NCBI GenBank assembly: GCA_041650835.1
Contig: JBAZKL010000002.1
Location: 270,477-334,476 of the forward strand
Length of the DNA: 64,000 nucleotides
Source of the DNA: Candidatus Omnitrophota bacterium
GTDB taxonomy: Bacteria > Omnitrophota > Gorgyraeia > Gygaellales > Profunditerraquicolaceae
Direction of reading: 5' to 3'
Positions within the stretch are counted from its first letter, which is position 1. Every line of letters begins with the position of its first letter. The notes below the pieces were generated by a model that searched no databases, was not told the DNA's origin, and saw only the letters and a program-made list of their open reading frames with translations. The translations under genes and the position numbers were made by a program. Shown here in pieces: positions 8,317-38,359 of this stretch.

Positions 8317-8565
8317 ATGGCTGAAAACTCTAATGAAAACAAACCTATCATGACCACCAAAGAGGTCGCCGAATATTTAAACATTCACCCCTTGACCGTG
8401 AATAAATACGCGAGGGAAGGCAAGATCCCCGCGTTTAAAATAGGCACCGATTGGCGTTTCCACAAAAGTTATATTGAAAATTGGATCAAAGATAAAGTAA
8501 CTCATAATGTCGCGGGAAAAGAGCGAAGGAAGAGTGCGACTGCGGCTTTGAATCCTGAAGGATAA
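8317..8565 (+). CDS. Excisionase-family (MerR-superfamily HTH_17) DNA-binding protein
   Basis: TTKEVAEYLNIHPLTVNKYAREGKIPAFKIGTDWRF is a canonical excisionase-type helix-turn-helix. It is the first gene after the promoter. Confidence 0.6.
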   Translation: MAENSNENKPIMTTKEVAEYLNIHPLTVNKYAREGKIPAFKIGTDWRFHKSYIENWIKDKVTHNVAGKERRKSATAALNPEG

Positions 8566-8567
8566 CC

Positions 8568-9611
8568 ATGAAAACATTTGCCATTCTTTTGAATCCCGCT
8601 ACTATTGTCGAGCTCAAACGCTTACTGCCCGGGGCGCGCTTCCTTCCGAATGCGGCACTCGAATTCTTATTGCGGAAGAACCTCCCGCTTAAAGTAATCA
8701 GGCTTAAAGAAATCACTTCTTCGCGGGGAGAGAAAATCTCCGGATATCTGATCATTTGGCCGGTTTTGAGGAAAACTATCGCTTCGCTTGATAAAGAAAT
8801 AATCAAAGAAAAGATCATTGAAGCGGGTTTGCTCGCGGGGCGCTTAGGTGCCCGGATCATCGGCACCAATGGCTCATACGGGCTTTCTGCCCTGGACTTA
8901 ACGGGCGTCACCCGGAAGATCAAGATACCTTTTACCAGCGGGGAGTCCCTTTTAAGCTGGTCATTCTTTGAGTCTCTTTTTTTATCGACTCAAGAAATTG
9001 GCCTTGAACTCAAAGATGCTTCAATCGCCATAATCGGGGCCAATTCTACGCTCGGCATGCTTTGCGCCCGAAAGCTGGCTACCTGCGCTTTGAACATCAT
9101 ACTCGCGGATACTGACGTAGAAAAACTTAACGCGTTCAAGGAAACGCTTATCTCCCGGAAGGCACAAGAGGATAAACAAAGCTCTCTCACGGTGATCTCA
9201 ACCTATGAACTGCCTCAAAAAGCGGCTCATGCGGATATTTTCATCCCGGTATCCAATGCTGCTTGTGAACAACTTACCCATATCAACTTAAAACCGAAAA
9301 GCATCATTTGCGCTGTTTCTGATTGCCAATATCTCGAAACAATAGCAGCACTCCTCAAAGATGTCACGGTTATAAAAGGCGGCATTATTAAGATGCCGCC
9401 ATCGATTGACCTGGGAGTAGATCTCGGGTTACCCGGCAATTTAATAAACGCAGCGCTTGCCGAGCCGATCTTATTGGCATTTGAAGGTAAAACGGGGACT
9501 TTTTCTCTCGGGGAAGCGACAAATATTAACAGGCTTGAGGATATCGCCGATATCGCTGTTCAATACGGCTTTGAGATCTATAATCCCCTCAAGCAGTCAC
9601 TCGTTCATTAA
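8568..9611 (+). CDS. Acyl-ACP reductase (AAR)-like protein; divergent paralog lacking the putative catalytic Cys
   Basis: Collinear with the cyanobacterial AAR fold: Rossmann segment IAIIGANSTLGMLCARKLA and C-terminal LAFEGKTGTFSLGEATNINRLEDI...GFEIYNP versus AAR ...[23 protein letters not shown]...GFQP. The position matching the AAR C(FAE) cysteine reads AALAEP. Confidence 0.5.
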   Translation: MKTFAILLNPATIVELKRLLPGARFLPNAALEFLLRKNLPLKVIRLKEITSSRGEKISGYLIIWPVLRKTIASLDKEIIKEKIIEAGLLAGRLGARIIGTNGSYGLSALDLTGVTRKIKIPFTSGESLLSWSFFESLFLSTQEIGLELKDASIAIIGANSTLGMLCARKLATCALNIILADTDVEKLNAFKETLISRKAQEDKQSSLTVISTYELPQKAAHADIFIPVSNAACEQLTHINLKPKSIICAVSDCQYLETIAALLKDVTVIKGGIIKMPPSIDLGVDLGLPGNLINAALAEPILLAFEGKTGTFSLGEATNINRLEDIADIAVQYGFEIYNPLKQSLVH

Positions 9612-9626: not shown

Positions 9627-10223
9627 ATGTGGTATAAAATCTTTCGCACGGGATGCATTCTCTTCCTGAAGCTGTTTTTCCGGCTTAAAATAGAAGGCCG
9701 GGAGAATCTGCCCAAAAAGAGCAATTTTATCGTAGTGGCAAATCATTCCAGCTTTATGGATCCGTTTGTCGTCGCGGCGGCCATACCCGCAAAGATCTAT
9801 TGTATCGCTTCCCGCTCATTATACGCGTTCCCTCAGTTAAAATGGGCGCTGCGTAAGCTCGACTGCCTGCCGACAGGCGCATCATCCGAATGCGCCATCG
9901 ACCTTTTAGTTAAGAATAATATCGTAGGATTGTTCCCGGAAGGAGGGATAAGCAGAGACGGTAAATTACGCGATTTTAAACGGGGGGCGGCACTTTTAGC
10001 GATGAAAACCGGCCGGCCGATAGTTCCGTGCGCGATCTCAGGGACTTTCGAAGCGCTTCCCTTAAAAGCGAGATTCCCGCGCCTGGTCCCCATATCGATA
10101 ACCATATGCAAGCCCGTTTTTTTATTAAAAGAGTTCGAGGAAGTCATCGATGATACCGACCTGCAGGAAGGCGTCACGCGGATAAAAAACGCAATAAAGG
10201 AAAAGCTAAATGCAAAACAATGA
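9627..10223 (+). CDS. 1-acyl-sn-glycerol-3-phosphate acyltransferase family (PlsC/LPLAT)
   Basis: H(X)4D motif VVANHSSFMDP, motif III LFPEGGISRDG, and an N-terminal hydrophobic anchor. Confidence 0.75.
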   Translation: MWYKIFRTGCILFLKLFFRLKIEGRENLPKKSNFIVVANHSSFMDPFVVAAAIPAKIYCIASRSLYAFPQLKWALRKLDCLPTGASSECAIDLLVKNNIVGLFPEGGISRDGKLRDFKRGAALLAMKTGRPIVPCAISGTFEALPLKARFPRLVPISITICKPVFLLKEFEEVIDDTDLQEGVTRIKNAIKEKLNAKQ

Positions 10224-11805
10224 TCTCATAGAAATAAGCGTTTCAAAATTGATCCCCGCGAAAAAATGGAGGGTGATCAGGTTATTGACAAAAGTCAATG
10301 AATTCCCCAGCTACATGCCGAATGTCAAAGAAGCGACCGTACTGGAGAAAGTGCATAACACCATCAAAACCAGGTGGAAGATCCAGGTTGACAGCGTGCC
10401 CATCAGCTGGACGGAAGTCGATACGCTCAAGCTTACCCACAACGAGATCTCGTTTCATTCCACGGAAGGGGACCTTCAGGAATTTAAAGGCGCTTGGAAT
10501 TTCCAGGACGACCCGCAAGGGACGATCGTGAGCGTCAATGTTTCGCTTAAGATCGATATTCCCGCGATAAAAGAGTTCGCGGAAAGCTATATAAAAAAGC
10601 TGCTCACTAAAAACTTTGAAGCGATGTTGGAGGCGATCGAAAAGAAGATCATCTCTCTGCGCTACGATAGTTATAAACACGGCAACATTGACAAAGTCGC
10701 CGGATTTGGCATTATCGCTCATCCCTACGATTTCTCTCATTTAGAAAAATGCTTTAAGATGCTCAATCCCGGCTACAGCGTCAGCTCGCCTGAATTTGTC
10801 AGCCAGCTCTTCCATGTCAGCCCATCGTTTAAACTCTATGATATTAACGCTTTTAAATCTCAGACCGGGGAAACCGTGAACGGATCGTTCATGATCGCCA
10901 CCTTTATTCCCGATATGATGGAGAAGGACATCTGGAGCGTATTCTCAAAAGTGGTGCGTGCCTGCAAGATCGCCGAAAAACACGGCATCGGCATTGTCAC
11001 CTTAGGAGGGTTCACTTCTATCGTCGCTGAACGGATCGGGCAGGAGGTCGCCTCCGAGGTAGATATCGCGGTCACCTCGGGAAACACCTTTACGGCGGCA
11101 ATGGCTGTCGACGGGGTTAATAAAGCGGCGGATTTAGTAGGCCTTGATATCGGTAAATCCACTTTAACGATCATAGGCGGCACGGGAGATATCGGAAGCG
11201 CCTGCGCGAGGGTCTTTGCCGGTAAAGTAAAAAACCTTATCATTACCGGCAGGACAAAATCTCATTTAAGTAACCTAAGCGCTGAGCTCAAAAGAACCAA
11301 AAAAGCCCGCGTAACGGCATCACTTGACAATAAAAAAGCGGTTCAAGGAGCCGATATCATCATTGCCGTTGCCAGCGCTACAACACCCATCCTCGAGATC
11401 GATTGGTTTAAACCGGGAGCTCTCGTGTGCGATGTCGGCTATCCGAAGAATATTTCCCATGCTCCGACGCAAAGAAACGATATCTTTGTATTTTCCGGGG
11501 GATTAGCAAAAAGCCCGACTCCGGTGAGCTTTCCCATCGATTTTTCCCTCCCGTCGCCGCAGGTGATCTACGGGTGTTTCGCTGAAGGAATAATCCTAGC
11601 CCTGGAAAAACGCTTTGAGAATTACAGCTTTGGAAGAGGCAATATTACAACGGAAAAAATAGACGAGATACGCGCTTTAGGCAAAAAACACGGTTTTGTT
11701 GTCGCTGATTTTTATTGGGGCGACACCCTCATAGACGCTTCGCTTATAGAAAGGATCCAAAGCATCGTTCATGAAAATAAAACTCATCGCGCCCAAAAGG
11801 CTTGA
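10210..11805 (+). CDS. SRPBCC (START/Coq10-like lipid-binding) domain fused to an acyl-ACP reductase (AAR) domain
   Basis: N-terminal 150 aa has the SRPBCC pattern (…WKIQVDSVPISWTEVDTLK…FQEFKGAWNF). The C-terminal 340 aa aligns along its length with cyanobacterial AAR: LGGFTSIV, GGTGDIGSACARVF, VGYPKN, CFAEGIILALE, SFGRGNITTEKIDEI. Confidence 0.65.
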   Translation: MQNNDLIEISVSKLIPAKKWRVIRLLTKVNEFPSYMPNVKEATVLEKVHNTIKTRWKIQVDSVPISWTEVDTLKLTHNEISFHSTEGDLQEFKGAWNFQDDPQGTIVSVNVSLKIDIPAIKEFAESYIKKLLTKNFEAMLEAIEKKIISLRYDSYKHGNIDKVAGFGIIAHPYDFSHLEKCFKMLNPGYSVSSPEFVSQLFHVSPSFKLYDINAFKSQTGETVNGSFMIATFIPDMMEKDIWSVFSKVVRACKIAEKHGIGIVTLGGFTSIVAERIGQEVASEVDIAVTSGNTFTAAMAVDGVNKAADLVGLDIGKSTLTIIGGTGDIGSACARVFAGKVKNLIITGRTKSHLSNLSAELKRTKKARVTASLDNKKAVQGADIIIAVASATTPILEIDWFKPGALVCDVGYPKNISHAPTQRNDIFVFSGGLAKSPTPVSFPIDFSLPSPQVIYGCFAEGIILALEKRFENYSFGRGNITTEKIDEIRALGKKHGFVVADFYWGDTLIDASLIERIQSIVHENKTHRAQKA

Positions 11806-13234
11806 AACGTGGGATGAAAATTTCTGGGATTTAAGAACACTCTCTCAACTGACGCGCAAATACGCAGGAGGAGCGCCACTGGCGCTCCCCAGCTTAGCGG
11901 CACTGACTCCGAACGATGTTGAAGTAATACTTACCGATGAAAATGTTGAACCGGTCGATTTCGATGAAAAAGTCGACTTAGTAGGGATAACGGGAATGAC
12001 CTGCGTGATCCCGCGCGCCTACGCGATCGCGGATGAGTTCAGGAAAAGAAGGGTCCCGGTCATTATGGGAGGCATACACGCTTCTATGGTGCCGCAGGAA
12101 GCCGCGCAACACTGCGATTCGGTCGTTATCGGAGAAGCAGAAGATATATGGAAGCAGGTAATAGAAGATGCCCAGAAGGGCACTTTGCAAAAAACGTACC
12201 GCGCCCCCGGATTCCCCGACCTCACCCAAGCACCCGTCCCTCGCTGGGACCTCTTGAAAAACGAGCGCTATTGCTATTTCACCGTTCAAACCGGCCGCGG
12301 CTGCCCCTTTGATTGCGAGTTCTGTTCCGTGCAGAAATTCAACGGGAGGAATTACCGCTCCCGGGACATTGACCTGGTTTTAAAAGAAATATCCTTATTA
12401 AAGAGCTTTGATGAAAAAAGGTCGTTTTTCTTTGTCGACGATAATCTACTCGCGAGAAAGGATTACGCGAAAGACCTTTTCACGCGGCTCATTGAGTACC
12501 GGATAAAATGGTGGTGCCAGGCCTCAGTGGACAGCCTCAAAGACGATGAAACACTTACGTTGATGTTCAAATCAGGCTGCAGGGAAATATTCGTCGGCTT
12601 TGAATCAGTGCAGCAAAACAGTTTACGCGCGATGCACAAAACTCACATGAACAAGGCCGATGAATATAAAGACATTATTGCCAAAGCCCACGCTCATGGA
12701 TTATCGATCTTCGGATCATTCATCTTAGGAAGCGACTCTGACAATAGCGCTATTTTCCAAGAAACCCGAGATTTTATCAAAGAAACAAATATGGCTTTCG
12801 CTATGATCAACGTATTAACGCCTCCGCCCGGGACGGCGCTTTATTCGAGGCTGGAAAATGAGCAACGCCTTTTACCGTGCCCCTGGAATCAATACGACGG
12901 AGAACACGTGACCTTTACGCCTCATATCTTATCACTCCAGGAATTACGTGAAAAAAGGATCGAGCTCATAAAGGATCTTTACGCTTACAAAAATTTGTAC
13001 TCGAGGCTTTCACACCTCTGGAGCAAGGGAGTATTCTTACGGGAAAGAGGGCGCAAAGGATTATTTTCTAAAGGACGTATCTTATTTTCTCTCCTCATGA
13101 TCTTTCGCGCTTCCTGGTCCCAAACGGTCTTTACCTGGAAATGCTTATGGAGAAAAAACGCCACATCGGTCATAACAGTTTTACTTGCGATCAGTTTCCA
13201 TGATTATGCGCAGCGCCTTAAGGCAAAAAAATGA
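11771..13234 (+). CDS. B12-binding domain radical SAM protein
   Basis: N-terminal cobalamin-binding Rossmann domain (MKIKLIAP…VDLVGITGMT…MGGIHAS) followed by a radical-SAM CxxxCxxC (GCPFDCEFCS). Overlaps the upstream stop by 35 nt and the downstream start by 4 nt. Confidence 0.8.
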   Translation: MKIKLIAPKRLETWDENFWDLRTLSQLTRKYAGGAPLALPSLAALTPNDVEVILTDENVEPVDFDEKVDLVGITGMTCVIPRAYAIADEFRKRRVPVIMGGIHASMVPQEAAQHCDSVVIGEAEDIWKQVIEDAQKGTLQKTYRAPGFPDLTQAPVPRWDLLKNERYCYFTVQTGRGCPFDCEFCSVQKFNGRNYRSRDIDLVLKEISLLKSFDEKRSFFFVDDNLLARKDYAKDLFTRLIEYRIKWWCQASVDSLKDDETLTLMFKSGCREIFVGFESVQQNSLRAMHKTHMNKADEYKDIIAKAHAHGLSIFGSFILGSDSDNSAIFQETRDFIKETNMAFAMINVLTPPPGTALYSRLENEQRLLPCPWNQYDGEHVTFTPHILSLQELREKRIELIKDLYAYKNLYSRLSHLWSKGVFLRERGRKGLFSKGRILFSLLMIFRASWSQTVFTWKCLWRKNATSVITVLLAISFHDYAQRLKAKK

Positions 13235-15402
13235 ACTATACGTTTAACCTTTATTCGATACCGACATTTTTAACCGCACTTTTTCTTTTCAGCCTGGGTT
13301 TATCCGTTTTTTTACGGGATAAAAGGTCGGATATTAATTTCAGCTTTCTTTTAGTATGTTTATCCGCCACCATTTGGCAGATGGGTTATTCTTTCGTCTA
13401 TTTAAGCGCAGATCAACATACCGCGCGTATTTGGCAGAAATTCGTATATTTCGGGATCCCATTCCTATCCCCCGCGATGTACCACTTTTCAACCGCGTAC
13501 CTTAAACTGAAGCGGCAAAGGAAATATGTCATTTTATCTTATATTTTCGGCGTTTTCTTCCTTGTCATTAACCTTTTTTCGAATTTACTGGTAAGCGATG
13601 TAACGAAATATTTCTGGGGATATTATAAGAAAGCGGGGCCTTTGTACACCATTTTTCTCATTTTCTGGCTCGTCCCGGGAATTTCGACTATTTACAACTT
13701 ATACCGGGAGCGTAAAAAATTTACCAGCCCTCTTGAGCGGGAAAGAAGAAAATACATCTTTATCGCATTTTCCATCGTATTCATCGGATTCTGGGATTTC
13801 ATACCTGCCTATGGGGTTAATATTTATCCCTTTGGTTTTATCGGCGTAGTCGCATGCCTTTCCACGATAGCATACGCCATTGTGAAATACCGTCTTTTGG
13901 ATATTACCGTTGTTATCACGCGCGCGGCAGTATTTTTGGCGGTTTATTCCATAGTATTGGGGATCCCGTTTATTCTTTCCGCGGCACTCAAAGAATGGTT
14001 CATGAGGCACCTGGGCTCAAATTGGTGGATGGGGCCGTTTTCCGCCTTGGTCATCTTAGGTACCGGCGGGCCGTTTGTTTACGTTTACCTTGAAAAAAAG
14101 GCGCAATCGATACTATTACGGGAACAACGCCGTTATCAGGAAATTCTCAAGCATATAGCAGTTGATCTATCCCGGATACGCAATTTACAAAAACTGATCG
14201 ATTATATCGCTCTTACGGTAACCGATGTTGTCCGTATTTCCCACACGATCATATATGTTCATGATGCCAAAAAAGACGTTTTTCTTTTAAAAGCCGGCAC
14301 TCACTTAAAAGATTCCCAGCTGCAGGCGATCGACCGGAAGAATATCCTGATCTCCTGGCTTGAGAAAAAAAAGGAGCCGTTAGTATACGAAGAAATCAAG
14401 CACCGCGCTCATGAAACTGCCGATCCTGACTTTAAGAAGCTGGAAGATCAAATGAGAAAACTCAACGCCGCGGTTATTGTGCCCTGTTTCCTGCAGGAAA
14501 AAATAATGGACTTACTTGTCCTGGGAGAGAAAATCTCGGGAAAGATCTATAATTCAGACGATTTAACGAATTTTTCTTTTTTAGCCAGCGAAGCGGCCCT
14601 GGCAACAGAGAACGCTCAATTATACGGCAAGATCGAGGACGAAGTTAAACAGCGCACCGAAGAATTAGTCGATGTGCAGAAACAGCTTGTTCAAGCCGAA
14701 AAACTGGCTACCGTAGGCACCCTTGCCGGAGGAGTGGCCCATGAGATCAATAACCCGTTAACGGCGATATTGACTAATGTGCAAATACTCCTGATGAGCG
14801 GTGACACTCTGGATACCGATTCAAAAGAATCATTAGAGCTTATAGAAGAAGCAACGAAGCGCTGCCGAAACATTGTTCAAAAACTAATGGCATACGCGAA
14901 GAAGCCGCTGGAGGAGTCAAAGGTCGGCAGGGTATTGATATCCGACATATTAAATAAAGTGCTCGCGTTCTTAGGCTACCAGTTTGAACAAGATAACATA
15001 AAGATAGAAATAGAGGAAAGGGAAAAGAATTGTTTTGTTCTCGGCAACCAGAATGAATTAGAACAAGTACTAACGAATATCCTCATTAATGCCAAAGACG
15101 CTATCATAGGATTTAAAAAAGGCGGGACTATCGCTATTTCAGTAGCCAGAAGCGGCAAATGGATAAAAATCCAGATCAAAGACGAAGGTATCGGTATTCC
15201 CCGTGAGGTCATTCATAAAATATTTGACCCGTTCTTTACCACCAAGGATGTCGGCAAGGGATTAGGCCTCGGTTTATCGATATGCCAATCAATTATTGAA
15301 AAACACAAAGGGTTGGTCACGGTTGAGTCAGAAGTCAATAAAGGGACCATGTTCAACATTTTACTGCCGGATGCCAAAGAGATAAACGCCATTACAATCT
15401 AA
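13231..15402 (+). CDS. Sensor histidine kinase with N-terminal 7TM sensor, GAF-like, HisKA and HATPase_c domains
   Basis: Seven hydrophobic helices in the first 270 aa. Canonical H-box VAHEINNPL. HATPase N/G boxes (…NAKDAI…, GKGLGLGLS). Confidence 0.85.
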   Translation: MNYTFNLYSIPTFLTALFLFSLGLSVFLRDKRSDINFSFLLVCLSATIWQMGYSFVYLSADQHTARIWQKFVYFGIPFLSPAMYHFSTAYLKLKRQRKYVILSYIFGVFFLVINLFSNLLVSDVTKYFWGYYKKAGPLYTIFLIFWLVPGISTIYNLYRERKKFTSPLERERRKYIFIAFSIVFIGFWDFIPAYGVNIYPFGFIGVVACLSTIAYAIVKYRLLDITVVITRAAVFLAVYSIVLGIPFILSAALKEWFMRHLGSNWWMGPFSALVILGTGGPFVYVYLEKKAQSILLREQRRYQEILKHIAVDLSRIRNLQKLIDYIALTVTDVVRISHTIIYVHDAKKDVFLLKAGTHLKDSQLQAIDRKNILISWLEKKKEPLVYEEIKHRAHETADPDFKKLEDQMRKLNAAVIVPCFLQEKIMDLLVLGEKISGKIYNSDDLTNFSFLASEAALATENAQLYGKIEDEVKQRTEELVDVQKQLVQAEKLATVGTLAGGVAHEINNPLTAILTNVQILLMSGDTLDTDSKESLELIEEATKRCRNIVQKLMAYAKKPLEESKVGRVLISDILNKVLAFLGYQFEQDNIKIEIEEREKNCFVLGNQNELEQVLTNILINAKDAIIGFKKGGTIAISVARSGKWIKIQIKDEGIGIPREVIHKIFDPFFTTKDVGKGLGLGLSICQSIIEKHKGLVTVESEVNKGTMFNILLPDAKEINAITI

Positions 15403-15427: not shown

Positions 15428-15802
15428 ATGAGTAAGAATATCCTGGTGATCGATGACGAAGATTTAGTGACGGAAAGCTTAAAACGCCTCCTTAAGAAGC
15501 AAGGGTATTTCGTCGCTGTTGCCGGTAATAACGCGGAAGCCATGAAAAAGATACAAGAACTCGATTTTGACCTCGTGGTATCGGATATACGGATTCCCGA
15601 AGTAAACGGGGTTGAAATTATCAAAAATATAAGGCATTATTATAAGGTATCCCAGAAAAAGCCCATACCGGAGATATTGATCACCGGATACTCCAGTGAT
15701 GAGCATTTGAAAGAGGCGCAGGCACTCAAAGTTGCCGATTATCTCTACAAGCCATTTGATATAAAAGATTTCCTGGAGATAATCAAAAAAAATCTAAAGT
15801 AA
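15428..15802 (+). CDS. Single-domain response regulator (receiver only)
   Basis: ILVIDDE…DLVVSDIRIPEVNG…K receiver motifs with no output domain. Confidence 0.8.
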   Translation: MSKNILVIDDEDLVTESLKRLLKKQGYFVAVAGNNAEAMKKIQELDFDLVVSDIRIPEVNGVEIIKNIRHYYKVSQKKPIPEILITGYSSDEHLKEAQALKVADYLYKPFDIKDFLEIIKKNLK

Positions 15803-15803: not shown

Positions 15804-16274
15804 ATGAACCAACCGATATTTACCGCGGCCAAACAGCGCGAATTCGTCTTCGAACTCATCGTAACACAGGGGGATACGACCCCTTATGGAAGCGCTTCCT
15901 TTATTAACTATATCCGCTGGTACAATATTGCCCGGGACGCGCTCCTGGTCTGGAAAAACCTGGGGTTTGAGGACAGTTTAAAGCCGTTCATCGAAACCGA
16001 GGTTTCTTTCTGTGACGTGCAGTATAAGCGCGAAGCTGTTTTGCAGGACGAGATAGTCATTAAGGTCAACGCCGCGGATATAAAAGAAAAAGAATTTAAC
16101 CTGCTCTTCACCTTGATCCGTAAAGATAACGCGTTATTGATCAGCCTGGGGAAACAAAAGATATGCCTGCGCAACTCAAAAACAGGGGAAGTGGTCAATC
16201 TACCGGAAAATCTGGTCAAAAATATTTTGTCGCCTATTGCCGTCGATGAAAAATCACTGCTGTTCAAATATTAA
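15804..16274 (+). CDS. Hotdog-fold thioesterase-like protein (4HBT family)
   Basis: About 150 aa, secondary-structure pattern consistent with a hotdog fold. Assignment from weak family resemblance and context only. Confidence 0.4.
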   Translation: MNQPIFTAAKQREFVFELIVTQGDTTPYGSASFINYIRWYNIARDALLVWKNLGFEDSLKPFIETEVSFCDVQYKREAVLQDEIVIKVNAADIKEKEFNLLFTLIRKDNALLISLGKQKICLRNSKTGEVVNLPENLVKNILSPIAVDEKSLLFKY

Positions 16275-16281: not shown

Positions 16282-16695
16282 ATGAAAACATTCAATGCGG
16301 GGTTTGATATCTATTTTGAGGACCTTTCAGCTTCAGGGAAAGTCCATTTGGAAAAGATCGGCGAATGGATGTCCATGACCCGCGAACAGTATTTTAAGTC
16401 TTCCTGCCCTGACCACCTCAAGTTCGTTGAAAGCCCCATACAGATGTTTACCATGGGATTGTCCATTACCGTAACGGGGAGCTCCCGCTGGGCGGATAGG
16501 ATCCAGGCGGTCCTTACGACCGCTAATATCAAAAAAATATCATTTGAAATGCATATAGACTTTAAAAACGAACGCACCGGCAAAGTGATCGCGAAAGGCG
16601 TGCAAAAGGTAGCCTTTGTCGATGTCGTAGCCAAGAAGTTCACTAATATTCCCGACGACATGAAACAGGTGATCATAAACTTTATTAACCCGTAA
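16282..16695 (+). CDS. Hotdog-fold thioesterase-like protein (4HBT family), second copy
   Basis: 137 aa paralog-like neighbour of the preceding gene. Weak assignment. Confidence 0.4.
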   Translation: MKTFNAGFDIYFEDLSASGKVHLEKIGEWMSMTREQYFKSSCPDHLKFVESPIQMFTMGLSITVTGSSRWADRIQAVLTTANIKKISFEMHIDFKNERTGKVIAKGVQKVAFVDVVAKKFTNIPDDMKQVIINFINP

Positions 16696-16727: not shown

Positions 16728-17429
16728 ATGAAAATATTAAATAATTTATACAAATACCTGGGCGATGTGTTGATCAAAACCTTCATCCTTTTCGCGGTAT
16801 TGATCATCCCCTTAACTGCGGTGGCCCTTAAATTCAAGTATGACTCTGTCGCTTACGGATGGTTTATGGTGGCTTTTATCTTTATTTTATCCATAGAAAG
16901 GACGTGGGAAACTTTCTATTCTTTTCAGGAAAAAAGAAAACATAAATTATACGGCGATTGGACGCTCGCGGTAGTATCAGTCGCTTATATACTTTTGATC
17001 TTTACGACCTTATTCGAGTTCTTTGTTTTTCCTGTCACCCTGAACATTACCCTCTCGCTCTATGGGTTATTCCTCTTTATTGCCGGGTTTTTACTGCGCT
17101 TATCGGGGATAAAAACCCTGAACCATCAATGGACAGTCCATGCAGTAGGAGCGAGCAAAATAAAAGATATTTACATTGTTAAATCGGGACCGTATAAATA
17201 TATGCGTCACCCGATCTATTTGGGCGTTATTCTCGAAGTCCTCAGTATCCCCTTGATCTGGAACGCTTACTTGGCTTTTTTTATCGCTTTAGCCTTAAAT
17301 GTGCCTTTGCAGATCATACGCGCTTATTTAGAAGAAAAAACATCGCTGCGGAGGTTCGGCGCAGATTTTACCAGGTACCTAAAAGAAACACCGGCATTCT
17401 TTCCTTATCGTATCACTAAAAGAAAATAA
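16728..17429 (+). CDS. Isoprenylcysteine carboxyl methyltransferase (ICMT)/PEMT-family membrane methyltransferase
   Basis: Multi-TM protein with the C-terminal SGPYKYMRHPIYLG…E……F core characteristic of ICMT/PEMT. Confidence 0.6.
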   Translation: MKILNNLYKYLGDVLIKTFILFAVLIIPLTAVALKFKYDSVAYGWFMVAFIFILSIERTWETFYSFQEKRKHKLYGDWTLAVVSVAYILLIFTTLFEFFVFPVTLNITLSLYGLFLFIAGFLLRLSGIKTLNHQWTVHAVGASKIKDIYIVKSGPYKYMRHPIYLGVILEVLSIPLIWNAYLAFFIALALNVPLQIIRAYLEEKTSLRRFGADFTRYLKETPAFFPYRITKRK

Positions 17430-19621
17430 TGTTCACCTCAATCAATCATTTCACCCTTTCAGCGCTCTTAACTTCAATAACTACGCTCTTCCTCGGGCTT
17501 TTTGTTCTGTTCAGGGGAGGGACGAAGCGAAAATCGTATTTCATTTTTACTCTTTACACGTTAAGCATCTCTTTATGGAGTTTTTCCGTTTCGCGCTTTG
17601 ACTCGACCCTCATTGATGACGTCCTGTTTTGGGGCCGCTTCCTCCATATGGGGGCGATCTTTATCCCTATTTTCGGACTACACTTTATACTTCACCTGCT
17701 TGAGATCAACAAACAAAATAAAGCAATTATTATAAGTTCCTACGCCGTCGGCGCGGTATTTACGTACTTTAATTTATTCACCTTGAAATTGATCAAGGGG
17801 ATCACCTATCGGTCAAATTATTCTTTTCCGACCCCCAGCACTTTATATCCGGCATTCTTTTTGTTTTTTGTTTTATGCACCGGATTCTGCTTAATGAAAT
17901 TATACTTCGGCTTTAAAGATTCAAAAAGCGAGATCGCGAATCAAAGAAAGTACCTTTTTTGGGGGTCATTGATCGGATACACCGGCGGGTTGAATAATTT
18001 CCTCATTACCGCTAATATTGAGATATTCCCGCTGCACCCATTCGGCGTTTACGCCATACTTATTTATGTCGCGATTTCCACGTACGCAATTATACGTTAC
18101 CGCCTTATGGACATATCGGTAGCCGTCACGAGAACGGGAGTATTTGTGGCAGTATACACCATAGTGCTGGGGATCCCGTTCGCGGTGGCTTATTTTTTAC
18201 GCTTGTGGCTGATCGGTATATTCGATATAAACTGGTGGGCAATACCGCTGTCGATAATGGCGGTTTTGGCTACCGTCGGACCGTTTATTTATATCTATTT
18301 TGAACGCAAGGCCGAAGACAGGCTTTTAAAAGAGCAAAAGCGCTATCAAAACACCCTGCGCCAGGCATCGATCGGCATGACGCGTATCCGCAGTTTACGC
18401 AAGTTGCTTGAGCTTATCGCGCATATAATCACGAAGACCGTGCGAATATCATTCGCCGCGGTATATCTTTTTCATGAAGCCGACGAAGAATACGTATTAC
18501 AGGTCTGCAGGGTCAAGAATAAAATGCTGGCGAGCAAACTATCGGCTCACTGCGCGTTGATCGAATGGATAAAAAACAACCAGGCCCCCTTGCTTTACGA
18601 AGAAATTAAACGCAAGATGATCGACGAAAAAAACACGGATTACCGATTGGTCGAAGAAGAGATGAGGCTCCTGGGTGCTTCGGTAATCCTTCCCAGTTTG
18701 CTGGAAAATAAGCTTTTAGGGCTATTGGTCCTGGGGAACAAACTTTCCGGCCGGATGTTCACCCCCGAAGACTTAAGCGTGTTCCAGGTCCTCGCCAGCC
18801 AGGCGGCCCTCGCCATTGAAAACGCCCAATTCTATGAAGATGCCAAAGAAATGCAGGGCCAGATCGCCCAGGCTGAAAAAATGGCTACTATCGGCACCAT
18901 GGCTGACGGATTGTCACACCAGATCAATAACCGCTTTTACGCGCTCTCCTTGATAGCGGGGGACACCATCGACACCATCAAAATGACCGACGCTTCAAAT
19001 TGTTCCACTGAGATCAAAGACATGTTAGGCCAGATCAACCACGCCCTTGAACGCATCCAATTCAATGTCCTCCAGGGAGGAGAGGTGGTCAAAGGTATCT
19101 TAAAATACACCCGTAAGGGCGATGAAGGCTTTGAAGCCCTTACCATGGACCAGGTCATTGACGGTACTTTAGCCATGGTGCAGTATAAAGTCAAATTAGC
19201 TGATTTCGACCTCATCCGGGAATACCCCTGCGACCTGGCGAAGATCAAAGGCAACCTCGTGCAACTGGAAGAAGTATTCTTCAACTTTATCGATAATGCC
19301 TATGATGCTATTGTAGAACGCAGATCAACGCTTAAAGAAGAAGGGTATCGGGGAAAAATAATCATCCGCGCCCAGGCACTGGATGCTGTTATGCGCATAG
19401 AGATACAGGATAACGGAATGGGAGTCAAAGAAGAAAACGCAAAAAAGCTCTTCACCCCTTTCTTTACCACTAAAGTATCTTCGCGCAGAGGCACAGGGCT
19501 GGGGTTATACGTCATCAACAAGATCATTACCGAAACCCATAAAGGCAAGATATTCATTGAATCACAGCATACAATCGGCACGAAATTCATCGTCGAGCTG
19601 CCTATCGCCGCACAAACGTAA
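17429..19621 (+). CDS. Sensor histidine kinase with 7TM sensor, GAF-like and atypical HisKA, plus HATPase_c
   Basis: Same architecture as 13231-15402. The H-box reads MADGLSHQINNRFYAL rather than HEINNP. ATP-lid GTGLGLYVINKI. The start overlaps the upstream stop (TAATG). Confidence 0.75.
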   Translation: MFTSINHFTLSALLTSITTLFLGLFVLFRGGTKRKSYFIFTLYTLSISLWSFSVSRFDSTLIDDVLFWGRFLHMGAIFIPIFGLHFILHLLEINKQNKAIIISSYAVGAVFTYFNLFTLKLIKGITYRSNYSFPTPSTLYPAFFLFFVLCTGFCLMKLYFGFKDSKSEIANQRKYLFWGSLIGYTGGLNNFLITANIEIFPLHPFGVYAILIYVAISTYAIIRYRLMDISVAVTRTGVFVAVYTIVLGIPFAVAYFLRLWLIGIFDINWWAIPLSIMAVLATVGPFIYIYFERKAEDRLLKEQKRYQNTLRQASIGMTRIRSLRKLLELIAHIITKTVRISFAAVYLFHEADEEYVLQVCRVKNKMLASKLSAHCALIEWIKNNQAPLLYEEIKRKMIDEKNTDYRLVEEEMRLLGASVILPSLLENKLLGLLVLGNKLSGRMFTPEDLSVFQVLASQAALAIENAQFYEDAKEMQGQIAQAEKMATIGTMADGLSHQINNRFYALSLIAGDTIDTIKMTDASNCSTEIKDMLGQINHALERIQFNVLQGGEVVKGILKYTRKGDEGFEALTMDQVIDGTLAMVQYKVKLADFDLIREYPCDLAKIKGNLVQLEEVFFNFIDNAYDAIVERRSTLKEEGYRGKIIIRAQALDAVMRIEIQDNGMGVKEENAKKLFTPFFTTKVSSRRGTGLGLYVINKIITETHKGKIFIESQHTIGTKFIVELPIAAQT

Positions 19622-19623
19622 TT

Positions 19624-20226
19624 ATGCACAGGTTCCTTACCGAGACAGTTTTTAGCTCTTTATACGGCATCATTACCGTTTTATTTGCCTGTGAACGCAT
19701 GACAGCCACGATATCCGCGGCACGGAAATCCGTAAAACAGCCCCCCCAGTTGCTCACCACTATCCCGTTGCTCACCTACTGCTTATTAGCTTTTGCGGCG
19801 GTCATTGAATATTTCATAGGGAGCAGGGCGCTCAATTACTGGATAAGCGCCTGCGGCTTCGCGATTTTTATGACCGGCATAAAACTTCGTACTGCAGCAA
19901 TTAAAGAATTTGCCGATAACTGGAATATACATATTACTGCCAAGTCCATAAAAAAGATCATAACTTCGGGGCCGTACTGTTTTGTCCGGCACCCGTATTA
20001 TTTAGCAGTCATACTTGAATTAACCGGTTTTTCATTAATTTCCAACTCATATTTTACCCTTACGGCGGTAGCGCTCATCCAACTGCCGCTGCTTTTAATG
20101 CGTATCGATCGGGAAGAAAAAGAGTTAGAAGATAAATTCCCCGGTATATATTTACCTTACAAGAAAACGGTTAACGCTTTATTGCCCGCCCTGCGGGGGC
20201 CGTTGAGGCAGACGAAAGGAAGATGA
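19624..20226 (+). CDS. ICMT/PEMT-family membrane methyltransferase, second copy
   Basis: SGPYCFVRHPYYLAVILE…REEKELEDKF core. Confidence 0.6.
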   Translation: MHRFLTETVFSSLYGIITVLFACERMTATISAARKSVKQPPQLLTTIPLLTYCLLAFAAVIEYFIGSRALNYWISACGFAIFMTGIKLRTAAIKEFADNWNIHITAKSIKKIITSGPYCFVRHPYYLAVILELTGFSLISNSYFTLTAVALIQLPLLLMRIDREEKELEDKFPGIYLPYKKTVNALLPALRGPLRQTKGR

Positions 20227-21266
20227 CCATGCATCAAGTATGCGATCTCATAAAGACTTTAGGAGCCAAGCAGGTAATTGATATTAAGAGGGCTCACGAA
20301 GAGATGTTAAAATATTCGCGCAGTTACATGACGCTCCATTGCATGGTCTGCCTCTTAAACGTCGGCTTCTTCGAAAGCATGGACGCGCAAGGAAAAGTAA
20401 ACTGCGCTGACTTCTCGCGACAGAAGCATTTAGAAAAAGAAATACTGGCTATCCTCTGTGAATACCTTTTTGCCACGCGCATGTTCGGCCGTTCGGGAAA
20501 CGACTATTTTCTAACAAAACAGGGCGCGTATTCGCTTACCTATGCTCAAGGGGCATTTTATTTCATCCACGCGTACGCTCCAATATTCGAGAACCTGGAT
20601 GCGCTGCTCAAAAAACAAAAAGTATACGGAAAAGATATTTTCCGCAGGGAAAGATCTGTTTCTAAAGCAAGCGCGGAAACCGAAAAATGGCTGCCATTCC
20701 CCATCGCCTGCGACATCATCAGGAAATACAAATTTAAAAGAGTGCTGGATCTCGGATGCGGGAGCGCCGAATTCCTCATGAGCCTCTGCAGCCGGGAAAA
20801 AGGGCTGTACGCCTGCGGCATTGATGTCTCCGCGGAATCCATCCAGTATGCCCAAGGCTTGATCAATAAGCGGGGAATGGACAAAAAAATAAGATTACTT
20901 GTTGGAGATATCTTTAAAATTGATACAATAGATGAGGATTTAGGTACTGTCGATGCCATTACCAGCATGTATGTCGTGCATGAGTTTATCGGAGATGACT
21001 TAACAAAAATAACCGAGCTTTTCAAAAAAATCAGGGCCCGATTCAGGGGCGCCTCCGTCATCATCTGCGAGCTCTGCAGGCAGCCCTCGGCACTAATACG
21101 CAAAAACGCTTCCGCTATCGCTGAACATCATCTCTTTCACGCGCTGGCCAAGCAACGCCTTCTCTCCCGGGAAGAGTGGAGGGAATTATTCAAGAAAACT
21201 GGTTATGAGGTCGTTGAAGAACGGCGCTTTGATTTCGCCAGCCAATGTTATTTTGTCTTAAAATAA
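20223..21266 (+). CDS. Class I SAM-dependent methyltransferase (O-methyltransferase-like)
   Basis: Motif I VLDLGCGSAEFL and post-I acidic LLVGDIF, with an N-terminal helical domain like small-molecule O-MT dimerisation domains. Confidence 0.65.
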   Translation: MTMHQVCDLIKTLGAKQVIDIKRAHEEMLKYSRSYMTLHCMVCLLNVGFFESMDAQGKVNCADFSRQKHLEKEILAILCEYLFATRMFGRSGNDYFLTKQGAYSLTYAQGAFYFIHAYAPIFENLDALLKKQKVYGKDIFRRERSVSKASAETEKWLPFPIACDIIRKYKFKRVLDLGCGSAEFLMSLCSREKGLYACGIDVSAESIQYAQGLINKRGMDKKIRLLVGDIFKIDTIDEDLGTVDAITSMYVVHEFIGDDLTKITELFKKIRARFRGASVIICELCRQPSALIRKNASAIAEHHLFHALAKQRLLSREEWRELFKKTGYEVVEERRFDFASQCYFVLK

Positions 21267-21273
21267 AGAAATT

Positions 21274-23454
21274 ATGAACAATTTCGCAATTTCAGCCTTA
21301 TTAACTTCCCTGACCACGTTATTTTTGGCATTATTCGTATTTATCAAGAACCCTAATGCCAAACTAAACAGGATTTTCACGCTTTATTCCTTGTGCATCG
21401 CTGTGTGGAGCTTCTTTGTCTCAATACACGGCTTTACCAGAAGCCAGGCGACATCAATGTTTGCGGCGCACGCCCTGCATATCGGCGCGGCATCTATTCC
21501 CGTCACTTTTGTGCATTTTGTCATGGTATTCCTTAACGATATAATCACCCCGTTCAAAAAATGGCTCCTGCGGCTCATGTATCTCATAGCCTGCGTATCA
21601 GCAACGGCAGGATTTACCCCTTTATTCGTAAAAGAGGTCACTGCCCGGCATAACGTCCTCTATCTCATGAAGCCCGGTGGGGTATGGTACCATCTTTTTG
21701 TATTTTATTTTGCTGCCTGCGTTTCTTACGGTTTATACCGCCTTTTCCTGGAATATATACGCTCAAAAGGCCTGCGGCATAACCAGATGAAATACCTCTT
21801 CTGGAGCTCGCTCTTTGGGTTTATCGGCGGGATCAATAATTTCCTTATCATCTATGATATCGATATATTCCCCTTGAACCCCTACGGCACGTACGCCGTA
21901 CCGCTTTATGTGTGCGTCGCCACCTATGCCATCATCAAATACCGTTTCATGGATATTAAAGTTGCCATAACCCGCACCGGTATTTTTGTGCTTGTTTACA
22001 CTTTTGTTTTAGGGATCCCCTTTGCGGTAGCATTATTGGCGAAATATTGGCTGATCAGCGTATTTAACCTTAATTGGTGGGCGGTCCCCTTGATCTTAAT
22101 GGCGGTTTTAGCGACTGTCGGCCCGTTCATTTATATTTACTTAGAAAGCAAAGCGGAGGGGAGGATCCTCAAAGAACAAAAAAGGTACCAGGACACGTTA
22201 AAACAGGCCTCGATCGGAATGACGCGCATTAGAAGCCTGCGCAGGCTTTTGGACCTGATCACCCACATCATTACCAAAACGGTGAGGATTTCTTTTGCGG
22301 CGATCTATCTTTTTCACGCGGATGAGCAGGAATTCACTTTACAGGTATGCAGGGACAGGGGAAGAGTGCTTACTAAAAAATTACCGGCGAGAAATCCTCT
22401 CTTTACCTGGCTCAACAAAAACAGGCAGCCGCTGGTATATGAAGAAGTAAAGAGGAAAATGCAGGACTTTAATGAACCGGTATACAAAACGCTGGAAGAG
22501 AACATGCGCCTGTTGACCGCGGCAGTCATAATCCCCAGCTTCCTGGAAAACAAGCTTTTAGGCTTTATTGTGCTCGGAGATAAACTTTCCGGCCAAATTT
22601 ACACGCTTGAAGACCTCAATGTTTTCCAGGTCCTTGCCAGCCAGGCAGCCTTAGCCATTGAAAACGCGCAATTCTATGAAGAAGCCAAAGAAATGCAGAG
22701 CCAGATCGCCCAGGCTGAGAAGATGGCTACTATCGGCACTATGGCTGACGGATTGTCGCACCAGATCAATAACCGCTTTTACGCGCTCTCCTTGATCGCG
22801 GGCGACACCATCGATACTATCAAAATGACCGATACTTCAGCCTGCTCCAAAGAAATAAAAGACATGTTTGAACAGATAAACCACGCCCTTGACCGCATCC
22901 AGACCAATGTTTTACAGGGAGGCGAAGTAGTGCGAGGCATCTTAAAATATACCCGTAAAGGAGATGAAGGCTTTGAAGCCCTGACCATGGACCAGATAAT
23001 CGACGGGACTCTCGCTATGGTCCAATACAAAATAAAACTTTCTGAAATAGACTTTGTCCGCGAATACCCGCAAGATCTGGCAAAAATAAAAGGCAACCTC
23101 GTACAGTTAGAAGAAGTATTCTTTAATTTTATCGATAATGCCTATGACGCTATTGTTGAACGCCGCACCATGCTCAAAGAACCGGGCTACAAAGGAAAGC
23201 TCGTCATCCACGCGAGGCGACAAGACAATATTATCCGCATAGAGGTGCAAGACAACGGGATGGGAGTAAAAGAAGAGAACTTGAACAAGCTTTTCGCACC
23301 CTTCTTTACGACAAAAGTATCTTCAAGGAGGGGGACAGGGCTTGGTTTATATGTTATCAACAAGATCATCACTGAGACCCATACTGGAAAGATATTCATA
23401 GAATCCACGCATAAATCGGGCACCCGCTTTATCGTAGAGCTGCCTGCCGCCTAA
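21274..23454 (+). CDS. Sensor histidine kinase, recent paralog of 17429-19621
   Basis: C-terminal 1.1 kb is roughly 90% identical in nucleotide sequence to 18.5-19.6 kb (…QAALAIENAQFYEEAKEMQSQIAQAEKMATIGTMADGLSHQINNRFYALSLIAGDTIDTIKMTD…). The 7TM sensor region has diverged. Confidence 0.75.
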   Translation: MNNFAISALLTSLTTLFLALFVFIKNPNAKLNRIFTLYSLCIAVWSFFVSIHGFTRSQATSMFAAHALHIGAASIPVTFVHFVMVFLNDIITPFKKWLLRLMYLIACVSATAGFTPLFVKEVTARHNVLYLMKPGGVWYHLFVFYFAACVSYGLYRLFLEYIRSKGLRHNQMKYLFWSSLFGFIGGINNFLIIYDIDIFPLNPYGTYAVPLYVCVATYAIIKYRFMDIKVAITRTGIFVLVYTFVLGIPFAVALLAKYWLISVFNLNWWAVPLILMAVLATVGPFIYIYLESKAEGRILKEQKRYQDTLKQASIGMTRIRSLRRLLDLITHIITKTVRISFAAIYLFHADEQEFTLQVCRDRGRVLTKKLPARNPLFTWLNKNRQPLVYEEVKRKMQDFNEPVYKTLEENMRLLTAAVIIPSFLENKLLGFIVLGDKLSGQIYTLEDLNVFQVLASQAALAIENAQFYEEAKEMQSQIAQAEKMATIGTMADGLSHQINNRFYALSLIAGDTIDTIKMTDTSACSKEIKDMFEQINHALDRIQTNVLQGGEVVRGILKYTRKGDEGFEALTMDQIIDGTLAMVQYKIKLSEIDFVREYPQDLAKIKGNLVQLEEVFFNFIDNAYDAIVERRTMLKEPGYKGKLVIHARRQDNIIRIEVQDNGMGVKEENLNKLFAPFFTTKVSSRRGTGLGLYVINKIITETHTGKIFIESTHKSGTRFIVELPAA

Positions 23455-27244: not shown

Positions 27245-27310
27245 GCATCCCCGTCCTTCAAAAGGAAAAACTATGCCCGGAATACGCTTACCAATACCCA
27301 AGAGCGTTAT

Positions 27311-27339
27311 TTGAAATTTCTTCACGCCTATGCTATACT
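27311..27339 (+). promoter_or_regulatory. Sigma70-type promoter TTGAAA-17-TATACT
   Basis: TTGAAA 27311-16 and TATACT 27334-39. It lies inside the 5' end of the tabulated ORF 27311-28474, so that ORF's true start is downstream. Confidence 0.4.
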
Positions 27340-27391
27340 TGGTATATTAGTTTTTCCCCAAAACAAACTCAAGAGAAACCATACAAAAAGG

Positions 27392-30357: not shown

Positions 30358-30359
30358 GC

Positions 30360-31568: not shown

Positions 31569-31572
31569 CCGA

Positions 31573-31992
31573 ATGGAACTAAAAACCTCGCCAAAACCTC
31601 ATCAAGCCTTTACCTTGATCGAATTGATCCTCGTCATAGTCATCATCGGGGTCTTAGCCGCGATGGTCGCTCCCCGGCTCGTGGGACGTTCTGAGCAGGC
31701 GAAGACCGCCGCCGCCCAATCAGAAATAAACGCAACCATCGCCCTGGCATTAGACGCGTTTGAAACCGATAATGACCGTTATCCCACGACCGCAGAAGGA
31801 CTCCAGTCGCTTATCGCTGACCCCGGATCGCTGCCTGGATGGAAAGGGCCGTACCTGAAAAAGATCCCCCATGACCCCTGGGGCCGGGCATACGCTTATA
31901 CCTCTCCCGGAACGCATAACCAGGATTATGATCTTTCATCTGCCGGCACCAACCTGATCGAAGGGGATAATGACGATATTGTTAACTGGTAA
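31573..31992 (+). CDS. gspG: Major pseudopilin GspG
   Basis: Prepilin leader plus GFTLIELILVIVIIGVLAA and the GspG hallmark DPWGRAYAY. Confidence 0.85.
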   Translation: MELKTSPKPHQAFTLIELILVIVIIGVLAAMVAPRLVGRSEQAKTAAAQSEINATIALALDAFETDNDRYPTTAEGLQSLIADPGSLPGWKGPYLKKIPHDPWGRAYAYTSPGTHNQDYDLSSAGTNLIEGDNDDIVNW

Positions 31993-31999
31993 GACAGCT

Positions 32000-33364: not shown

Positions 33365-33388
33365 GGATAATAACCGGTCACGACATCG

Positions 33389-36319: not shown

Positions 36320-36381
36320 ACCATCCAAACCATAGATCACAAGAACATAATTATTACTCCCAAAAGCTTACTCAATAATTC

Positions 36382-36409: not shown

Positions 36410-36432
36410 CTCCAACTAGAGAGTAAAGGGAG

Positions 36433-37459: not shown

Positions 37460-37461
37460 TT

Positions 37462-38346: not shown

Positions 38347-38359
38347 AAGGAGAAAAAAG

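Follow-up and report, generated by a model that had tools for sequence, protein, structure and literature searches.

A predicted class-B radical SAM enzyme in an acyl-lipid gene cluster of a Candidatus Omnitrophota bacterium as a possible optional lipid-tailoring enzyme

Class-B radical S-adenosylmethionine (SAM) enzymes are a known anaerobic route to functionalising inert lipid carbons. To our knowledge, few lipid enzymes of this class have been assigned reactions, and several methyl-branched or ether lipid biomarkers lack identified enzymes. Radical SAM genes of the cobalamin (B12) type are already known from lipid gene clusters of anaerobes; one such cluster type was reported for Kuenenia, Desulfotalea, Geobacter and Pelobacter by Rattray et al. 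2009 (PMC2649909), and a 2026 review (PMC13459092) describes the chemistry of such ladderane-type clusters as still unknown. Here, we analysed a 64,000-nucleotide stretch of DNA from a Candidatus Omnitrophota bacterium (assembly GCA_041650835.1, contig JBAZKL010000002.1, positions 270,477 to 334,476), hereafter the window, focusing our attention on a gene for a radical SAM protein with a B12-binding domain (hereafter rSAM). Positions follow the numbering of the whole window, and homologous loci obtained by contig look-up or collection scans carry L numbers. What is new is a member of an unnamed clade, its operon partners (a PlsC acyltransferase and a fusion of SRPBCC and acyl-acyl carrier protein (ACP) reductase-like domains, SRPBCC-AAR), the variable slot that the gene occupies, and an association with seven-transmembrane (7TM) sensors that is specific to the close clade. 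We tentatively favour the reading that rSAM is an optional enzyme for radical tailoring of a fatty acyl or alkyl chain, that it probably depends on cobalamin, and that methylation is the leading guess for its reaction, a proposal about which we are slightly more doubtful than confident.

The rSAM gene encodes 487 amino acids. Membership of the radical SAM superfamily is indicated by the CxxxCxxC motif, the Radical_SAM domain match and a barrel resembling radical SAM structures, while assignment to class B follows from an N-terminal Rossmann-like B12-binding domain above its Pfam cut-off and from full-length matches to class-B folds; Pfam domains, AlphaFold2 model and Foldseek matches thus agree on the architecture proposed in the first-pass annotation. 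Among 50 homologs, the cluster motif shows no variation at C178 and C185 and at least 90% conservation at C182, and an additional cysteine within the barrel, C270, is near-invariant; no auxiliary-cluster cysteine motif is conserved across the same set. The family-invariant N-terminal residues (D56, E57, D69, G100, G101, H103, S105, G121, E122 and A123) map, in the AlphaFold2 model, to loops at the C-terminal ends of the predicted Rossmann beta strands, where a cofactor would be expected to sit. This model, built from the 50-homolog alignment, has a mean predicted local distance difference test score (pLDDT) of 93.9 and a predicted template modelling (TM) score of 0.92, with lower pLDDT (72-91) for residues 420-487 in the helical C-terminal part. 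The ratio of nonsynonymous to synonymous substitution rates (dN/dS) is 0.108 against the L081 ortholog (84% amino acid identity), inside the range of 0.02-0.18 obtained for housekeeping and cluster genes compared in the same way, which rules out gene decay. Given this ratio and the confident model, rSAM is a functional gene under purifying selection and not a chance open reading frame (ORF). Moreover, its proposed translational coupling between the AAR fusion and a sensor kinase is borne out, as the rSAM ATG starts 35 nt inside the 3' end of the SRPBCC-AAR gene, with AGGA 15 nt ahead of it, and its TGA shares bases with the kinase ATG as ATGA.

An identical deposited protein, from an 868-kb contig of a Candidatus Omnitrophota metagenome-assembled genome (MAG), is annotated as 'radical SAM protein', and none of the best 120 matches (42-84% identity) is functionally named; the named ones come from MAGs labelled Omnitrophota, Elusimicrobiota, Actinomycetota and Sumerlaeia, with one from Thorarchaeota. 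In an NCBIfam scan, no curated model reached its cut-off. The top match was HpnJ (TIGR03471; 112.2 bits, cut-off 577.6), limited to the radical SAM core of the window protein, together with PhpK/Fom3-like (TIGR04479; 106.6, cut-off 600), ApyD (102, cut-off 750), BchE (TIGR02026; 92, cut-off 481.35), TIGR04072 (86.6, cut-off 360), the MgmA family (TIGR04014; 81, cut-off 360) and HpnR (TIGR04367; 76.9, cut-off 650). AprD4 (NF033070) scored only 58.7 bits (cut-off 500), although it tops the fold matches, and BzaD (38.7, cut-off 450), KedN5 (29.9, cut-off 700) and tryptophan C-methylase (19, cut-off 500) scored lower still. As the scores from HpnJ down to AprD4 are nearly equidistant, rSAM is not an ortholog of any of these families; orthology to BchE or to an antibiotic methylase, named at the outset as grounds for abandoning a lipid role, was not seen, nor was orthology to a phosphonate methylase, all cut-offs being far above the scores obtained. 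From these comparisons, rSAM appears to belong to an undescribed clade of class-B radical SAM enzymes, and our literature search found no paper on this clade or on SRPBCC-AAR fusions.

Matches to solved structures give the class-B level only, and no reaction. A PDB search with the 50-homolog profile returned AprD4 (78 bits) and MgmA (74 bits), plus weaker core-only matches, and Foldseek ranked AprD4 (TM 0.71-0.76 over approximately 460 columns), MgmA, TsrM, OxsB, CysS and TokK, with MiaB and RimO also present. A hopanoid or tetraether substrate in particular found no backing: HpnR and HpnJ remain below their cut-offs, the annotated window genes include no hopanoid or bacteriochlorophyll genes, and no tetraether synthase occurs among the PDB sequence matches (E<=0.01) or the top 50 Foldseek matches, the presence of the glycerol dialkyl glycerol tetraether (GDGT)-MAS entry in the library being unconfirmed. 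DUF4070, the C-terminal domain, is discussed in two papers, one on a hopanoid methylase and one on hopanoid biosynthesis.

Gene neighbourhoods of the close rSAM clade were studied through 12 contig look-ups. PlsC, SRPBCC-AAR and rSAM are adjacent, with overlapping genes, in the window, in L081, L082 and L168, and in the Elusimicrobiota locus L083. As in the window, L081, L082 and L168 share the order HTH protein, AAR-like protein, PlsC, SRPBCC-AAR, rSAM, 7TM kinase and response regulator, and the L168 cluster goes on with a ketoreductase (KR), two ketosynthases, an ACP, an ApeI/ApeP-like dehydratase and an NAD_binding_4 reductase. Locus L083 has PlsC, SRPBCC-AAR, rSAM and a second PlsC, without the kinase. 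Elsewhere the partners change: in the Omnitrophota locus L169, rSAM stands in a row of 7TM kinase, LuxD-like acyltransferase-methyltransferase fusion, rSAM and 7TM-GAF kinase; in L170 it is divergent from a ketosynthase, an NAD_binding_4/epimerase protein and a 7TM kinase; and in L087 it lies between an acyl-AMP ligase and NAD_binding_4 reductase on one side and a class I/II aminotransferase on the other. At the base of the clade are L089 (AMP ligase, rSAM, Aldedh/LuxC-like protein, 7TM-GAF-HD-GYP), L090 (ketosynthase, two rSAM genes, ICMT, a third rSAM, 7TM protein, 7TM-GAF kinase) and L004 (ICMT, rSAM, ICMT, ketosynthase, 7TM hybrid kinase), while L084, L085 and L086 hold rSAM as a solitary gene among unrelated ones. 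The recurring neighbours are thus acyl-chain enzymes, notably those that form or use aldehydes, and the neighbourhoods of rSAM and its relatives are overwhelmingly made of acyl-lipid genes, in agreement with the lipid context read from the window alone.

A similar picture was obtained for distant relatives, represented by approximately 160 loci at 30-48% identity among the matches listed (scans of genome and metagenome contigs, none above 48%), whose neighbouring ORFs were clustered and the loci holding each family counted. A ketosynthase was found beside the relative in at least 26 loci, a SPASM radical SAM protein in at least 24, an LpxL-like acyltransferase in at least 20, a FabD-like protein and a family 2 glycosyltransferase (GT2) in at least 19 each, a polysaccharide deacetylase in at least 18, FabG in at least 12, and PlsC, a FabZ/FabA-like protein and a 4HBT thioesterase in at least 9 each. 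Relatives at 35-45% identity lie inside 'ladderane-type' clusters resembling type II fatty acid synthesis (FAS-II). In Geobacter hydrogenophilus (L024), such a relative lies upstream, at a distance of 1.3 kb, of a separate paralog that is a true TIGR04072 member (390.6 bits, cut-off 360); the order there (L024:5895-17317) is polysaccharide deacetylase, GT2, SPASM radical SAM, B12-type rSAM relative, FabD-like, TIGR04072 B12-type radical SAM, FabG, two ketosynthases and FabZ-like. In a neighbour-joining tree computed with numpy, without bootstrap and read for its coarse topology alone, the close clade is sister to the FAS-linked relatives, and members in AAR context are scattered within it. Lipid association is therefore seen at several levels of the tree.

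Table 1. Position and supporting evidence of the features of the window, starting with the rSAM gene.
Feature	Position	Strand	Evidence
rSAM gene (B12-binding-domain radical SAM + DUF4070)	11771-13234	+	ORF, translation, Pfam, NCBIfam, AlphaFold2, Foldseek, dN/dS
B12-binding domain of rSAM, N-terminal, Rossmann-like	residues 36-128, 11876-12154	+	Pfam PF02310 45.8 bits, cut-off 32.1
Radical_SAM domain of rSAM	residues 173-336	+	Pfam PF04055 64.9 bits
CxxxCxxC motif (C178, C182, C185), [4Fe-4S] cluster	12302-12325	+	translation, GRGC178PFDC182EFC185
DUF4070 of rSAM, C-terminal helical domain	residues 355-455, 12833-13135	+	Pfam PF13282 36.3 bits, cut-off 22
HTH_17 (excisionase/MerR-like) DNA-binding protein, cluster head	8317-8565	+	Pfam 58 bits
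AAR/PigE-N-like paralog	8568-9611	+	weak NCBIfam PigE and AAR matches
PlsC-type (lysophospholipid/Aas-like) acyltransferase	9627-10223	+	Pfam Acyltransferase 93.5 bits
SRPBCC (Polyketide_cyc) + acyl-ACP-reductase-like fusion	10210-11805	+	Pfam; TIGR04058 181 bits, cut-off 449.7
HisKA_7TM sensor histidine kinase	13231-15402	+	Pfam; start overlaps rSAM stop
Receiver-only response regulator	15428-15802	+	Pfam Response_reg
Two 4HBT-fold acyl-thioesterases	15804-16274, 16282-16695	+	Pfam 4HBT_2
ICMT/PEMT-like membrane methyltransferase, then 7TM-GAF kinase, another ICMT-like protein, SAM methyltransferase and another 7TM-GAF kinase	16728-23454	+	Pfam
DUF2079 + methyltransferase-GT2 fusion genes	23629-28474	+	Pfam
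CobO/BtuR corrinoid adenosyltransferase	45755-46258	+	Pfam 213.6 bits
Cobalamin riboswitch upstream of btuF	47602-47730	+	Rfam RF00174 83.2 bits, cut-off 31.5
BtuF; BtuC; BtuD (corrinoid import)	48014-48901; 48995-50020; ending 50820	+	Pfam
CobC; CobU; CobT; CobS (nucleotide-loop assembly)	50796-51467; 51460-51975; 51977-53038; 53035-53766	+	Pfam
Probable second cobalamin riboswitch, sub-threshold	54484-54663	+	RF01482 33.5 bits, cut-off 50; local search E=1.2e-4
TonB-dependent receptor (BtuB-like); TonB	54667-56511; 56814-57503	+	Pfam Plug + TonB_dep_Rec; TonB_2

The lipid cluster of the window lies entirely on the + strand (Table 1), with valS, nadC, uvrB and coaX preceding the HTH_17 gene, which holds the equivalent position in L081, L082, L168 and L171-174. 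The SRPBCC-AAR protein aligns across the whole of cyanobacterial AAR (6jzq, 140 bits) and keeps the catalytic Cys294 as GCFAE, so that the first-pass description of an 'AAR fusion' stands; it is predicted to be a thioester reductase forming fatty aldehydes. More than 120 cluster representatives share at least 62% identity with it, the named ones all being Omnitrophota/Omnitrophica, and the fusion is much more conserved than rSAM. In the AAR/PigE-N-like paralog, Ala replaces the catalytic Cys (NAALAEP, as opposed to GCFAE in the fusion and NGCMAE in PigE, 4ppm). For this paralog, which L081, L082 and L168 share and which L083 and L171-174 lack, a role as thioester reductase is improbable. Each of the eight AAR-type loci compared (L081-L083, L168, L171-L174) has PlsC immediately upstream of the fusion gene. 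Downstream, the arrangement of rSAM followed by a HisKA_7TM kinase recurs in L081, L082 and L168, and the 4HBT thioesterases are 89-96% identical in L081 and L082.

Comparison of these loci revealed a variable slot, bounded by the SRPBCC-AAR gene and the first 7TM kinase. In L171 (L171:11579-14105) it holds no rSAM, but an NAD_binding_4/epimerase protein, resembling fatty acyl reductases (FAR), and a 511-amino-acid protein without Pfam match, in whose sequence we read an HHxxxDG motif, typical of wax-ester-synthase/condensation-type acyltransferases. In L172-174 (L172:11577-14252) the slot is filled by an Aas-like AMP-binding/ACP/acyltransferase protein, again without rSAM. Absence of the gene from otherwise conserved versions of the locus, which had been named beforehand as an observation that would count against a lipid role, was therefore found, with other acyl enzymes standing in its place. 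Taken with the solitary homologs, these rSAM-free loci imply an accessory tailoring step and not a fixed step of the pathway: absence elsewhere excludes an obligatory pathway step, and is no argument against a tailoring role. In addition, the rSAM of L082 (10001-11470) is only 60% identical to that of the window (dN 0.32, dS saturated), while the PlsC, AAR and thioesterase genes around it show 86-93% identity (dN 0.04-0.08), and because of this difference the L082 gene looks like one replaced in situ by a diverged homolog.

We then examined the link to 7TM sensors, using the N-terminal 240 amino acids of nine HisKA_7TM proteins as tblastn queries against the rSAM loci. A HisKA_7TM domain was found within a few kb of rSAM in about 10 of the 14 close-clade loci having usable flanks (the window, L081, L082, L168, L169, L170, L087, L089, L090 and L004), and none near the distant relatives in the approximately 150 loci listed. 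The outputs of the associated sensors vary between kinase, hybrid kinase and GAF-HD-GYP. Within the window, a lipid-type enzyme gene directly precedes each of the three 7TM kinases, namely rSAM, an ICMT, and an ICMT plus methyltransferase. Since L171-174 keep the 7TM kinase without rSAM, the sensor link belongs to the whole lipid locus. The two 7TM-GAF kinases (17429-19621 and 21274-23454) are paralogs sharing 66% identity, each with an ICMT/PEMT-like gene ahead of it, an arrangement that suggests tandem duplication of an enzyme-sensor pair. No ligand for HisKA_7TM was found in our literature search. It is conceivable, albeit unlikely in our estimation, that the rSAM clade is one effector among those of an unrecognised circuit by which membrane lipids are sensed and remodelled independently of O2. 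HisKA_7TM sensors, with kinase or HD-GYP output, would there be paired gene by gene with enzymes modifying lipid chains or head groups (B12-type rSAM, ICMT/PEMT-like and AAR enzymes), and the rSAM product would be a new lipid, methyl-branched or C-H-functionalised in another way, or else an ether lipid obtained through an aldehyde. In such a circuit, the sensors might read the state of the membrane and switch on radical tailoring of lipids, acting as an anaerobic counterpart of DesK-Des, or they might detect a lipid-derived signal made by the paired enzymes.

For the tailoring role that we tentatively favour, the following mechanism may be envisaged. The [4Fe-4S] cluster bound by C178, C182 and C185 would cleave SAM to give a 5'-deoxyadenosyl radical, which would abstract hydrogen from an unactivated lipid-chain carbon, the chain being supplied by housekeeping fatty acid synthesis and handled by the adjacent PlsC and SRPBCC-AAR reductase. 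The carbon radical would most likely be quenched by a methyl group from methylcobalamin on the N-terminal Rossmann domain, and the product would be a methyl-branched lipid formed without O2, with expression embedded in a cluster that HisKA_7TM membrane sensors may govern or that may feed them. We infer all three of the lipid-chain substrate, the bound cobalamin and the methylation outcome; C-methylation is the leading single guess, and taken by itself a doubtful one. The acyl-lipid context agrees with the earlier proposal of C-methylation or C-C/C-O bond formation on a lipid chain, but the sequence does not favour one type of reaction.

Several observations weigh against this role. Three close homologs are solitary (L084, L085 and L086), and, together with the conserved loci lacking rSAM, they indicate that rSAM is not tied to the product of AAR. 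No dedicated ketosynthase, ACP or dehydratase was found in the 64-kb window by tblastn with the corresponding L168 sequences, which rules out a dedicated FAS there; the chains must therefore derive from housekeeping fatty acid synthesis. The B12 genes lie 32 kb from rSAM, not in one operon with it, and would serve any B12 enzyme. The clade appears to be known from sequence alone, its hosts being uncultivated. Moreover, the near-equal family scores (77-112 bits) show no preference of the sequence for methylases, and the closest solved structure, AprD4, is a 1,2-diol dehydratase. AprD4, which has the same B12-binding domain, is reported to be cobalamin-independent, so that this domain alone is no proof of B12 use. 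Finally, the 2026 review (PMC13459092) treats HpnJ, the best NCBIfam match, under ring contraction, not methylation.

Alternatively, rSAM could be a B12-type enzyme acting on a lipid chain without methylating it, by joining carbons through a C-C bond, by cyclisation, by forming rings or by desaturation independent of O2, as BchE, OxsB, HpnJ and the GDGT ring synthases do in their respective systems. We consider this somewhat unlikely. HpnJ, BchE and TIGR04072 are among the weak matches (112, 92 and 87 bits), C270 offers an additional near-invariant cysteine in the barrel, and relatives occur in clusters of the Kuenenia/Desulfotalea/Geobacter type, whose proposed chemistry is anaerobic desaturation or cyclisation (PMC2649909, PMC13459092); nevertheless, every family score is below its cut-off, the conserved cysteines include no auxiliary-cluster motif, and the ladderane-type clusters themselves have no known product. 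The likeness to AprD4, which leads the solved structures by both sequence and fold, could instead point to a cobalamin-independent radical dehydratase or lyase acting on an oxygenated lipid intermediate, such as a hemiacetal or diol to which the AAR aldehyde and a hydroxyl group of glycerol would contribute; the outcome would be an alkyl or alkenyl ether, reached otherwise than through PlsAR/Ger. Enzymes that form or use aldehydes (AAR, NAD_binding_4 reductases, LuxC/Aldedh) are repeatedly adjacent to rSAM, and ElbD-type ether-lipid genes have been found in 93 of 267 Omnitrophota MAGs (PMC11868695). However, identity to AprD4 is only 18-19%, its NCBIfam score is far below the cut-off, the strongly conserved N-terminal loops suggest a bound cofactor, solitary homologs have no nearby reductase, and the chemistry is wholly hypothetical, which makes this route quite improbable.

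The solitary homologs and the variable slot, together with the RiPP (ribosomally synthesised and post-translationally modified peptide) enzyme ApyD and the protein methylase MgmA among the weak matches, might also be explained by a non-lipid substrate (peptide, protein, sugar or small metabolite), the lipid surroundings then arising from shared regulation by 7TM kinases or from chance synteny. Such an explanation is hard to reconcile with acyl-lipid neighbours recurring in at least four types of neighbourhood and in more than one phylum, and we give it little credence. A RiPP role was rejected, as neither a small precursor-peptide-like ORF nor a peptidase flanks rSAM in the window.

Regarding the supply of cobalamin to a tailoring enzyme of this kind, all of the uptake and salvage genes that the first-pass annotation had listed for the window were identified by Pfam, but the two riboswitches placed ahead of them fared differently. 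The one upstream of btuF passes its Rfam threshold; the other falls below its cut-off and is a probable riboswitch, with a B12-box-like core, 52 inserted nucleotides and a 3' hairpin of reduced length, directly ahead of the receptor gene. CobO, which had been described as lying behind the riboswitches, is upstream of both. Between the lipid cluster and the B12 region lies a block of type II secretion/pilus genes (28642-40255), with T2SSE, T2SSF, pseudopilin-like ORFs, PilM/N and secretin. In L169, rSAM, 7TM-GAF kinase, response regulator, HD-GYP, monogalactosyldiacylglycerol (MGDG) synthase, LpxL-like, GT2, PCMT, CobO and BtuF follow one another within approximately 8 kb, CobO and BtuF being only about 7 kb from rSAM. 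The run from response regulator to BtuF is repeated at 40322-48901 of the window, where the secretion block and the DUF2079 and methyltransferase-GT2 genes intervene after the lipid/kinase cluster. Proximity of lipid and B12 genes is therefore partly conserved in the phylum, yet not as one operon. The idea that scavenged corrinoid supplies rSAM thus keeps its salvage genes and, in L169, some of its proximity, but it lacks a functional link across the distance in the window, and the connection of rSAM to the B12 regulon is circumstantial.

A Diphthami_syn_2 (ATP-pyrophosphatase-like) gene (53785-54492) is wedged between cobS and the leader of the BtuB-like receptor gene, and CrcB (fluoride channel) and DUF190 genes (46500-47228) lie between cobO and the cobalamin riboswitch; an Rfam scan at gathering thresholds reported no fluoride riboswitch. 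Two tRNA genes of the window lie at 60128-60199 and 60255-60328, and a bacterial class A RNase P RNA is encoded at 61570-62063 (215.6 bits).

At present, the rSAM finding stands at the level of annotation. The clade is widespread in uncultivated anaerobic phyla (Omnitrophota and Elusimicrobiota, besides MAGs carrying Actinomycetota or Sumerlaeia labels), and its compact operon could suit heterologous expression. Identification of the product would provide a lipid biomarker or biosynthetic step for Omnitrophota, as well as a candidate class of ligand for HisKA_7TM sensors.

Compared with described systems, the window protein has the same three-domain order as AprD4 (PDB 6fd2), its closest solved structure by sequence and fold; AprD4, however, acts on an aminoglycoside in an antibiotic cluster, and shares less than a fifth of its residues with rSAM. 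The class-B fold is also shared with MgmA, TsrM, CysS and TokK (9ccb, 6wte, 9n1b and 7kdx), which C-methylate unactivated or sp2 carbons; identity to these is 14-20%, and their substrates are proteins or antibiotic intermediates. With HpnP/HpnR and HpnJ, rSAM has in common the combination of B12-binding and radical SAM domains (plus DUF4070), and the substrates of those enzymes are membrane lipids; it differs in scoring far below the HpnR and HpnJ cut-offs and in having neighbours that suggest acyl chains and not triterpenoids. The SRPBCC-AAR partner resembles the reductase of the cyanobacterial alkane pathway, formed by AAR together with aldehyde-deformylating oxygenase (ADO), in its full-length alignment and retained cysteine, but it remains under the family cut-off (181 against 449.7 bits), is fused to SRPBCC, is partnered by PlsC without ADO, and occurs in anaerobic host lineages. 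As to TIGR04072 and the clusters resembling FAS-II in Kuenenia, Desulfotalea and Geobacter (PMC2649909), the score of the window protein against that model places it in another subfamily, and the window cluster has PlsC, AAR, thioesterases, ICMT-like proteins and 7TM kinases in place of a ketosynthase and an ACP. What the two share is a class-B radical SAM gene within a dedicated acyl-lipid cluster of anaerobes, and in Geobacter hydrogenophilus they meet in a single locus, where a relative of the window protein at 40-44% identity lies approximately 1.3 kb from a true TIGR04072 protein, amid ketosynthase, FabD-like, FabG, FabZ-like, GT2 and polysaccharide deacetylase genes.

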